Below, piece by piece: positions 13,933 through 14,350 of a DNA stretch of 64,000 nt. Made by a program: the position numbers and the translations under genes. The first letter of the stretch is position 1; each line of letters begins with the position of its first letter. The notes under the pieces were generated by a model that searched no databases, was not told the origin of the DNA, and saw only the letters and a list, made by a program, of their open reading frames with translations. Where the stretch lies: positions 70,331 to 134,330 of the forward strand of contig JAZDLR010000016.1 in NCBI GenBank assembly GCA_043801745.1, read 5' to 3'. This stretch comes from Candidatus Komeilibacteria bacterium. Its GTDB lineage: Bacteria; Patescibacteriota; Patescibacteriia; UBA1558; 2-01-FULL-52-15.

Positions 13933-13983
13933 GCGAGAGTAGTTTCGGCCAAAGGCCGATCCGCCTGTGGCGGACAGTGGTAG
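13933..13983 (+). pseudogene. tRNA-Gly 5' fragment (GCGAGAGTAGTT...CAGTGGTAG) interrupted by a 30-nt twin-hairpin insert
   Basis: Matches positions 1-12 and 14-22 of the intact tRNA-Gly 90 nt downstream. The twin-hairpin element is inserted in the D-loop. Confidence 0.5.
13943..13973 (+). repeat. twin-hairpin GC-rich repeat, copy A (TTTCGGCCAAAGGCCGATCCGCCTGTGGCGG)
   Basis: Two consecutive short palindromes. Related copies occur at 51697-51727 and 61389-61420. Confidence 0.6.
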
Positions 13984-14022
13984 GCCAGGTTGAATGGATG
14001 GTAGTAAAATATATTTTTTTAC

Positions 14023-14097
14023 GCGAGAGTAGTTCAGTGGTAGAACGTCTCCTTGCCAAGGAGAAGGTCGCGGGTTCGACTCCCGTTTCTCGCTCCA
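14023..14097 (+). tRNA. tRNA-Gly (GCC)
   Basis: Cloverleaf by eye. Anticodon loop TTGCCAA, T-loop GGTTCGACTCC, encoded CCA. Confidence 0.9.
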
Positions 14098-14350
14098 CCC
14101 TACGTTCAGCGAAGCTGAACTTCGGGTGGCCTTTGGCCACACGAATCGCCGTAGGCGAAGTAGGGTAGTCGCGCGTAGCCTTGGCGTAGTGTGACAGTGT
14201 TAAATAATTACCTCATGGGAGGTCTTATTTGTATCTAGGCAATAATTGGATTTCAGACTACAATTATTCCGCGCCTCTTTTTTAAAGACGAAAAGGGCAT
14301 ACACAAATAAATATCTTGCTTTTGCGTCTACCATATGATAAGATTAAATT

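Follow-up and report, generated by a model that had tools for sequence, protein, structure and literature searches.

The stretch of DNA analysed here, 64,000 nucleotides (nt) from a Candidatus Komeilibacteria bacterium (the window), carries a tRNA-Gly(GCC) gene whose 5' part occurs a second time a short distance upstream: the segment at 13933-13983 repeats nt 1-21 of that gene as an incomplete, non-functional copy, split by a 30-nt palindromic insert that is referred to below as the twin-hairpin (TH) element. The window, which holds 23S and 5S rRNA genes and ten tRNA genes (ARAGORN, Rfam), is of bacterial origin by this content, and the HNH and DUF167 proteins that it encodes are identical to entries from a metagenome-assembled genome of Candidatus Komeilibacteria, in the Patescibacteria. 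For the arrangement as a whole, the explanation to which we attach moderate confidence is that of a dead tandem copy of the leader plus the 5' part of the gene, split by TH and carried in the leader of the pre-tRNA, with the neighbouring HNH endonuclease gene and the hairpins of the trailer being separate from it. Known processes, namely local duplication, a pseudogene remnant and a palindromic repeat, mostly account for the finding; the Gly locus itself is a scar of modest interest, and the interesting part is the family of elements to which its insert belongs. The features that make up the copy and its surroundings are the following:

13933..13944, plus strand: partial tRNA-Gly copy, part a (nt 1-12), GCGAGAGTAGTT, an exact match; the same 12-mer stands at the same place in the related contig L001
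13945..13974, plus strand: TH palindromic mini-element, TCGGCCaaaGGCCGA + TCCGCCtgtGGCGGA, inserted at TT/CA
13975..13983, plus strand: partial tRNA-Gly copy, part b (nt 13-21), CAGTGGTAG, an exact match
13984..14022, plus strand: AT-rich spacer of 39 nt between the fragment and the intact gene, without a promoter-like site
14023..14097, plus strand: intact tRNA-Gly(GCC) (ARAGORN; Rfam 70.2 bits), 100% identical to the tRNA-Gly of L001

Read across the insert, GCGAGAGTAGTT and CAGTGGTAG are identical to nt 1-21 of tRNA-Gly(GCC) at 21/21 positions, without a mismatch, and the copy starts 90 nt 5' of the intact gene at 14023-14097. The pattern GCGAGAGTAGTT-N{0,30}-CAGTGGTAG is found at only two sites in the window, the dead copy and the intact gene, where none is expected from 100 shuffles. 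The insert consists of two perfect 6-bp hairpins of 15 nt each, with 3-nt loops. A preliminary description of the locus had recognized a duplicated 5' fragment of tRNA-Gly with an inserted twin hairpin, and both elements are confirmed; it had placed the insert in the D-loop, which holds as far as the D arm is concerned, but the insertion point, between nt 12 and 13, falls in the 5' strand of the D stem (GTT/C) and not strictly in the loop. The 3' half of the tRNA, reported there as unrecognizable, was indeed not found in the spacer or the window by blastn-short, by 16-mers with two mismatches, or by local alignment against shuffled sequence, in which the spacer gave nothing significant. ARAGORN and Rfam detect only 14023-14097 and do not see 13933-13983 even at E<=10, so that the copy does not qualify as a functional tRNA (RF00005); furthermore, no Rfam family except tRNA matches 13860-14350, leader or trailer, at E<=10, and no other RNA gene thus accounts for the fragment better than tRNA-Gly does.

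The fragment forms part of a transcription unit whose remaining elements lie on both sides of it:

13885..13912, plus strand: sigma-70-like promoter, TTGATT-16 nt-TG-TATTAT, conserved in the related contigs L001, L009 and L141
14098..14165, plus strand: trailer, with a closing stem CCCTAC/GTAGGG around three triloop hairpins (14104-14120, 14126-14140, 14146-14158), as seen in the fold
14168..14195, plus strand: hairpin with the conserved loop GTAGCCTTGGCGTA and stem GTCGCGC/GTGTGAC, from the fold and stem covariation
14210..14233, plus strand: intrinsic-terminator-like hairpin and T tract that ends the tRNA-Gly unit, conserved in L001 and L009

The site at 13885-13912 is the only promoter-like one 5' of tRNA-Gly on the plus strand, none being present in the spacer, and since the fragment stands between it and the tRNA, it would be part of the pre-tRNA leader and not a gene. 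The fragment would accordingly be transcribed inside a leader of ~110 nt, directly behind the promoter of the locus, and removed when RNase P cuts off the leader, presumably having no function of its own. No long-range RNA pairing of the fragment is consistent between the folds of the window and L001. Downstream, the stem of the hairpin at 14168-14195 covaries, being GTCCACC/GGTGGAC in L001 (~8747-8775) and GTCCTCC/GGAGGAC in L009, and its G-U pairs indicate that it is read as plus-strand RNA. Its conserved loop, G-W-AGC-Y-TT..GCG-W-A, is retained even where the remaining trailer is swapped, and a motif like CGAAGCC..GGCGAAG that resembles this loop hairpin follows tRNA-Val(TAC) on the minus strand (~47640-47610).

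The preliminary description had also proposed that an inverted repeat brackets the intact gene. Both arms, GGCCAAAGGCC (13947-13957) and GGCCTTTGGCC (14128-14138), are present, but each forms the centre of a separate palindromic hairpin (at 13945-13959 for the first and at 14126-14140, the middle hairpin of the trailer, for the second), and they are two independent members of the hairpin family, not a paired element. The 11-nt repeat was likewise discarded as a pair of element termini: the arms are self-palindromic, L001 has no such pairing, and in L009 the trailer is replaced.

The clade is rarely sampled. A scan of genome contigs for further Komeilibacteria relatives yielded one useful locus, and the DUF167 protein encoded next to the locus has 4 non-self homologues in 5.8 billion proteins, 3 of them close (70-74% identity). 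In L001, from a metagenome-assembled genome, the IMPase (58-59% identity) and DUF167 (70%) proteins are well diverged from those of the window, and the 5' side is built alike: behind the same promoter come GCGAGAGTAGTT, two 15-nt hairpins, CAGTGGTTAGA, 47 nt of spacer that cannot be aligned, and an identical tRNA-Gly. The hairpins of the L001 insert differ in sequence from those of the window and follow the same design. On the 3' side of L001, a closing stem encloses three hairpins whose sequences are unrelated to those of the window; next come the hairpin with the conserved loop, the terminator, the HNH gene and tRNA-Leu(TAA). Three further contigs (L009, L011 and L012) encode the same HNH protein as L001, and from leader through tRNA they differ from it by one promoter base and one A in the A-run of the spacer; their trailer is entirely unlike that of L001 and in L009 consists of a single hairpin. 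The swap between close strains marks the downstream hairpin cluster as a fast-turnover region and not as the conserved partner of the upstream hairpin. The clusters concerned (8678-8747 in L001, ~1728-1760 in L009) are wholly different next to an identical HNH protein, leader and tRNA, which indicates that recombination or replacement stopped exactly at the tRNA boundary.

L141, in turn, is close to L001 (IMPase 93%, DUF167 91% identity) and shows the empty state, in which the same promoter and leader run directly into an intact tRNA-Gly with neither fragment nor insert. The comparison with relatives that had been called for, in search of an uninterrupted tRNA-Gly, therefore yields both the empty state (L141) and the interrupted one (L001), and the fragment and insert can be present or absent between close relatives. 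Their distribution, present in the window and L001 and absent from L141, fits one gain and one loss as well as it fits two gains.

How the fragment arose was addressed by an anchored, ungapped comparison of the 20 nt immediately 5' of the intact tRNA with the leader. In L001 these 20 nt match the contig's own distal leader at 12/20 positions (p=0.004) and the leader of L141 at 13/20 (p=0.0006), and the L001 structure is therefore a tandem duplication (p about 0.001), the unit of which begins right behind the -10 box and extends to nt 23 of the tRNA. Over the first 14 nt the leader of L141 equals the L001 distal leader, whereas the last 6 nt are closer to the proximal copy, which hints that the L141 state came about by loss through recombination between the repeats, six bases being too few for certainty. 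The leader is also duplicated along with the 5' part at the tRNA-Tyr of L036 (p=0.02) and, by eye, at the tRNA-Ile of L119. As the spacer of the window is not recognizably related to the leader, the tandem-duplication origin of its fragment is inferred from L001. The event would have been a small local tandem duplication of the leader and the 5' part of the tRNA, starting right behind the -10 box, ending in the D arm, joined through a short microhomology (TAG) and leaving the fragment at the ancestral place of the gene's 5' end. Insertion of TH into a single-copy, essential tRNA gene would presumably be lethal, which could explain why TH is seen only in redundant partial copies. Once inserted, TH would break up and shorten the homology between the repeats, and may thereby shield the duplication from being deleted again.

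The element itself is one member of a widespread family, for which the consensus, flanks included, is T-N-TCCGCC-NNA-GGCGGA-TCCGCC-TNN-GGCGGA-N-A, with a 30-bp unit and loops NNA and TNN. The window contains 3 TH copies (0 expected) and 8 single hairpin units (0.015 expected), and a degenerate pattern, for which complementarity of the stems was not required, matched at least 120 metagenome contigs, which span 28-72% GC and a wide range of environments; this count is a lower bound, and the figures given here on TH copies refer to the matches listed. With a single exception, every copy has two stems that pair perfectly, and ~14 variant stems (TCGGCC, TCGCCC, TCCCCC) are all compensated. The flanks are biased as well, with T at -2 in 104/122 and A at +2 in 101/122 copies (83-85%), so that the family prefers TN/NA sites; in the Gly fragment this T and A belong to the tRNA (TT/CA). 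TTCA appears, from reading the sequence, to be the sole TNNA site within nt 1-21 of tRNA-Gly, and the insertion position common to the window and L001 could thus reflect either orthology or a hotspot. Insertion occurs without target duplication, the tRNA being continuous across the Gly insert (GTAGTT/CAGTGG), and the same is seen in L079, L036 and L045.

In the metagenomes TH is mostly carried, and tolerated, within protein genes: 82/123 copies (67%) are within long open reading frames (ORFs), where random positions would give 77%, and 71/82 of these intragenic copies share one frame, translated as S-A-x-G-G-S-A-x-G-G. As an example, the peptide that TH encodes in a GlmU homologue (L029) aligns to an 8-residue gap in solved GlmU structures. 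Comparison between loci is also revealing, since the Gly TH of L001 matches the reverse complement of the window's Arg TH at 29/30 positions (direct sequence comparison), while between the "orthologous" Gly copies of the window and L001 three stem pairs and both loops differ. Taken together, TH is a palindromic mini-element that is present in several copies and is probably mobile. A scan of viral contigs gave two genuine copies only, neither beside a tRNA. The literature searched contains no description of TH or of partial tRNA copies in the Candidate Phyla Radiation (CPR), an absence that does not amount to proof of novelty.

Several further occurrences of the family can be recorded at this point. 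The third TH of the window (61391-61420, TCGCCCataGGGCGA CCGCCCtgtGGGCGG) is intergenic, with no tRNA near, and hairpins of the family type occur within the 23S gene and the 23S-5S spacer (35484-35498, which is in the 23S gene, 36029-36045 and 38098-38112): TCCGCCtttGGCGGA is located at the tip of a long 23S helix, and the other two rRNA-region hairpins are CCCCGCCtttGGCGGGG and TCGGCCgtaGGCCGA. TH also stands directly after the ATG of genes, mostly for small membrane or prepilin-like proteins, in L093 (two paralogues, 37-66 and 778-807), L134, L106, L061 and L099; it could affect translation initiation there, or the N terminus could simply be tolerant. In addition, diverged orthologue pairs carry TH at the same codon with different loops (L028 9575 and L040 14468; L101 2018 and L112 13085), which suggests long persistence or a hotspot, a search by exact pattern biasing which cases are visible.

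Partial tRNA copies are not restricted to the Gly locus. Six of the ten tRNA genes in the window (6/10) have adjoining ones:

13933..13983, plus strand: tRNA-Gly, 5' copy with TH
51691-51731: tRNA-Arg, 5' copy with TH, starting 92 nt before tRNA-Arg(TCG)
47954-47850, minus strand: tRNA-Leu(GAG), 5' copy whose D loop holds two longer hairpins
46854-46935, minus strand: tRNA-Ala(TGC), 3' copy with a family hairpin, downstream of the gene
51899-52148: tRNA-Lys(CTT), nested, the outer tRNA split at GA/GC (nt 22/23) by an insert of ~173 nt
30199-30450: tRNA-Val(GAC), nested: 5' fragment, CCCGCCCGCC..., intact gene at 30282-30358, ...GGCGAAGCGGGCGGG, 3' part

The Arg copy consists of GCGCCCTT (nt 1-8 of tRNA-Arg), the TH TCGCCCataGGGCGA TCCGCCtttGGCGGA and AGC, and stands behind a promoter-like TTGATA-17-TATAGT that was spotted by eye. 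The Leu(GAG) copy has a GCGGAGGCGATGAAA-type match, GCCGAGGCGATGAAA (13/15), followed by the hairpins CCCTGAAC..GTTCAGGG and CTGTACC..GGTACAG, and continues with TTGGTATA, which resembles nt 16-23, before the spacer and the intact gene. The 3' copy at Ala(TGC), CCGGCAGGGTCCACCA (14/16), comes after the family hairpin TCCGCCtgatGGCGGA and a stem, CCCCGCCAC...TGGCGGG, with TTGCA in its loop; it may represent a complete pseudo-tRNA in which GC hairpins have taken the place of the arms. The two nested loci are of another kind. The Lys insert holds an entire second tRNA-Lys(CTT) (51974-52050) between complementary ends, CCTGCCCGCCGCTCGC and GCGAGC..GGCAGGCGGG, and in the outer tRNA the 5' GGGTCGT pairs with the 3' ACGACCC, a compensatory difference from the inner gene; in the 3' part of the outer tRNA-Val, the T arm has been swapped for a hairpin, TTCCGCCgctGGCGGGA, and the pairing of the acceptor strand is lost. 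The radical-SAM gene beside the Arg/Lys locus did not lead to orthologous loci, synteny not being conserved.

In the window, 2/3 TH copies (Gly and Arg) are inside 5' partial tRNA copies; in the metagenomes, 3 of the ~120 listed copies lie beside a tRNA, and 3/3 of these are inside a partial copy:

L079, tRNA-Val: nt 1-17, TH, nt 18-25, spacer, intact gene
L036, tRNA-Tyr: nt 1-37, TH, nt 38-49, spacer, intact gene
L045, tRNA-Ser: the intact gene comes first, followed by a 3' copy whose T loop contains TH

Most TH in tRNA copies are at loop positions. A 3' copy of tRNA-Lys in L063 bears a twin hairpin of another kind in its T loop. Beyond a passive role, the TH mechanism itself may target tRNA-shaped DNA or provoke duplication.

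Several observations weigh against a simple duplication scar. At the window locus the spacer matches the leader at 7/20 positions, with no detectable homology, and the duplication is seen in L001 and not here. If the fragment is ancestral to the window and L001, a perfect identity over 21 nt beside a spacer that cannot be aligned is not what neutral decay produces, and would need selection, gene conversion or independent recent origins; two independent origins in the window and L001 would in turn mean that something makes the event recurrent. The fragment ends at nt 21-23, which is where the Val and Lys genes are interrupted, and this could point to a common site-specific process and not to slippage. 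Partial copies at 6/10 of the window's tRNAs are, moreover, many for accidental scars. Finally, no transposase or other mobility enzyme for TH was identified, its mobility being read from its distribution alone.

These points give room to other explanations, one of which casts TH in the active part: it would be an undescribed, cross-lineage 30-bp mobile element of CPR and groundwater bacteria that is translated inside many proteins as S-A-x-G-G-S-A-x-G-G and specifically invades loop positions of tRNA-shaped DNA. In lineages such as Komeilibacteria, the resulting pressure or the mechanism of TH itself would cause tRNA genes to be partially duplicated and nested again and again, and the dead copies would be kept as landing pads or as by-products of active tRNA targeting, not as random scars. 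We put this forward tentatively and consider it rather unlikely.

A second explanation, which we regard as unlikely, takes up the suggestion of the preliminary description that the Gly locus is an older, more decayed instance of the Val/Lys architecture. A cassette with a replacement tRNA-Gly would have entered the resident gene at about nt 22, perhaps through a site-specific mechanism or one driven by an endonuclease; the 3' part of the resident gene would have disappeared later, together with the GC-rich ends of the insert. The shared break point speaks for it: a 5' fragment that ends near nt 22 stands before an intact copy here as well (nt 21 in the window, nt 23 in L001), close to the GA/GC 22/23 junction of Lys (51899-52148) and Val (30199-30450). 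It would also account for the fragment having kept the ancestral promoter and leader, so that the 5' part of the intact gene is the "new" DNA, and for a window spacer that is unrelated to the leader, as foreign DNA would be; HNH and GIY-YIG genes do occur within the tRNA clusters of the window. The remaining hallmarks are missing, however. No counterpart of the CCYGCCCGCC...GGCRGGCGGG ends exists in the window or L001, where the fragment is followed by GCCAGGTTGAAT and GGTTGCGG, respectively, with no complementary partner beyond the tRNA, and no 3' remainder lies downstream of tRNA-Gly in the window, L001 or L009. Furthermore, the flanks in L001 fit tandem duplication, and the HNH gene is bound to tRNA-Leu, not tRNA-Gly. 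The decayed Val/Lys architecture is therefore not demonstrated: the break point is common, and the GC-rich ends and 3' remainder are absent. An apparent T-arm remnant in the spacer of L001 (p ~0.1) is not claimed.

It is rather improbable, in our estimate, that the copy and its hairpins are a selected, functional leader, acting as a processing or stability element or as a decoy landing pad that soaks up insertions of hairpin elements, under purifying selection in Komeilibacteria. Such a role would explain why the design, the insert position and the exact tRNA identity are common to lineages with 58-59% IMPase identity whose spacers cannot be aligned, why the stem differences are compensatory, why 6/10 tRNAs in the window have hairpin-bearing partial copies, and why the leader is stable between close strains while the trailer is replaced. 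Nevertheless, L141 is close to L001 and lives without the copy, other CPR lineages have plain tRNA-Gly, tRNA-Cys and tRNA-Leu genes, partial copies are decaying elsewhere (L045, L079 and Leu-gag), and in the folds the fragment takes part in no long-range pairing that is conserved. In addition, TH copies from different loci resemble each other more closely than the "orthologous" copies do, a pattern that suits repeated insertion better than conservation.

A scar of foreign DNA, left by a small integrative element that once attached at the tRNA 5' part or by DNA from a relative that recombined with the tRNA as its sole anchor of homology (homology-facilitated illegitimate recombination), would suit a copy that starts exactly at tRNA +1 with identity that ends at the tRNA boundary, the wholesale trailer replacement between L001 and L009 next to an identical tRNA and leader, and the duplicated 3' end of tRNA-Leu(TAA) in L001, but it is very doubtful, given that neither an integrase nor an element body is present, just 39-47 nt lie between the repeats, and in L001 the proximal flank shares homology with the native leader and hence is not foreign.

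The local duplication of leader and tRNA 5' part leaves aside the HNH gene, which the preliminary description had listed with the Gly locus as an abutting endonuclease. The features in question are:

14351..14824, plus strand: HNH endonuclease gene, with its stop codon TAA at 14822-14824 and a promoter-like site of its own at 14236-14264
14825..14909, plus strand: tRNA-Leu(TAA), with which the HNH gene is paired in a conserved manner

The gene ends at base -1 of tRNA-Leu(TAA), as had been stated, its stop reaching 14824 and the tRNA starting at 14825. The encoded protein matches Pfam HNH_3 with 25.7 bits (cutoff 24.8) and PF01844 with 19.5 bits, below the cutoff of that family, and its best 119 non-self homologues, from many CPR phyla, are 69-81% identical. 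An HNH gene stands 0-6 nt 5' of tRNA-Leu(TAA) in six CPR lineages (the window, the L001 group, L013, L014-L017, L152 and L153/L154), whatever lies upstream, the upstream neighbour being either tRNA-Gly or tRNA-Cys; the other CPR lineages with this unit have plain tRNA-Gly, tRNA-Cys and tRNA-Leu genes, without fragments or hairpins. HNH and tRNA-Leu(TAA) are thus a conserved unit of their own, apart from the Gly fragment; either a homing cassette or gene domestication could account for this unit. The region 5' of the HNH gene has a conserved sequence of the type GCGTCTACC-N-TTGATA. Overall, the preliminary description was right on the fragment, the insert, the missing 3' half and the end point of the HNH gene, and has to be corrected on the inverted repeat and on the membership of the HNH gene.

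Other genes and repeats were seen in the neighbourhood of tRNA genes. In L001 the 3' end of tRNA-Leu(TAA) is duplicated (9571-9589, AGTCCCGCCCTCGGCACCA) 85 nt 3' of the intact gene; before the duplicate stands a sequence of the CCCCGAGCTTGTCGAGGGG type, which is found again in the window at ~38365-38400. An 89-aa GIY-YIG domain protein (65 bits) is encoded on the minus strand (47314-47583) between tRNA-Val(TAC) and tRNA-Ala(TGC), and an ORF of 230 aa (30522-31214) has its stop codon within the first 10 nt of tRNA-Ala(GGC). The latter has no Pfam, NCBIfam or PDB match beyond a weak, N-terminal helix-turn-helix-like one, and a LAGLIDADG identity considered for it is unsupported by these three databases.

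Set against known systems, the Gly locus is neither a split nor an intron-bearing tRNA gene. A group I or other tRNA intron does not apply, since the host copy lacks a 3' half, no intron family was matched and the genome is bacterial; nor does a split tRNA of the Nanoarchaeum type, since no separate 3' half of tRNA-Gly occurs within the window. This bears on tRNA annotation and on the reconstruction of pre-tRNA processing, for tRNA genes of this CPR lineage are ringed by dead partial copies and hairpin elements, and such fragments should be read as split or intron-bearing tRNAs only with caution. Like the attL/attR repeats of tRNA genes, the locus has a direct repeat of a tRNA segment with the intact gene restored on one side; unlike them, it repeats the 5' part instead of the usual 3' part, has no integrase or element, and leaves 39 nt (window) or 47 nt (L001) between the copies, with no ORF. 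In the tandem-duplication/random-loss model of animal mitochondrial genomes, a duplication leaves a dead partial tRNA copy beside a live gene, and L001, by its flank homology, resembles such a remnant. The difference lies in the unit, here the leader plus the first 21-23 nt, in its recurrence at many bacterial tRNAs, and in the hairpins that regularly occupy the copy. The association of TH with partial tRNA copies offers a testable tie between palindromic elements and tRNA gene rearrangement.

As to the element family, TH is palindromic but makes no target-site duplication, and does not conform to a miniature inverted-repeat transposable element. REP and REPIN sequences are short, palindromic and multi-copy, often occur in inverted pairs, are extragenic, and have a GTAG head and a RAYT gene alongside. 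TH is REPIN-like in being a unit joined to its own reverse complement, in this case directly and without a spacer, but it is 67% intragenic among the listed copies and has T-N/N-A flanks with no GTAG, and it does not belong to that class. Closer in build are the double-hairpin and repetitive hairpin-forming elements and GC clusters of mitochondria (Allomyces, sponges, yeasts), which are very short, GC-rich, made of one or two hairpins, and scattered through AT-rich genomes in intergenic regions, variable rRNA regions and sometimes genes; the family hairpin at the tip of a 23S helix in the window (35484-35498) recalls them. These elements are organellar, with lineage-specific sequences and no reported frame bias as strong as that of TH, whereas the TH core TCCGCC/GGCGGA recurs across many bacterial contigs. 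If mobile, TH would be among the smallest such elements known, and would serve as a marker of strain variation and be a source of protein loop insertions in minimal genomes.

The nearest parallel in behaviour is offered by the Rickettsia palindromic elements (RPEs), selfish palindromic repeats that lie in-frame in unrelated protein genes and are translated as an extra surface peptide (PMC10969869). The in-frame insertion of TH (71/82 listed intragenic copies; the GlmU loop) is a likeness of behaviour only, not of membership, and no sequence relationship between the two is known. RPEs measure ~100-150 bp and are specific to Rickettsia, whereas TH is a perfect twin hairpin of 30 bp that occurs in many environments and in partial tRNA copies; it shows RPE-like behaviour in an element five times smaller and with a far wider distribution.

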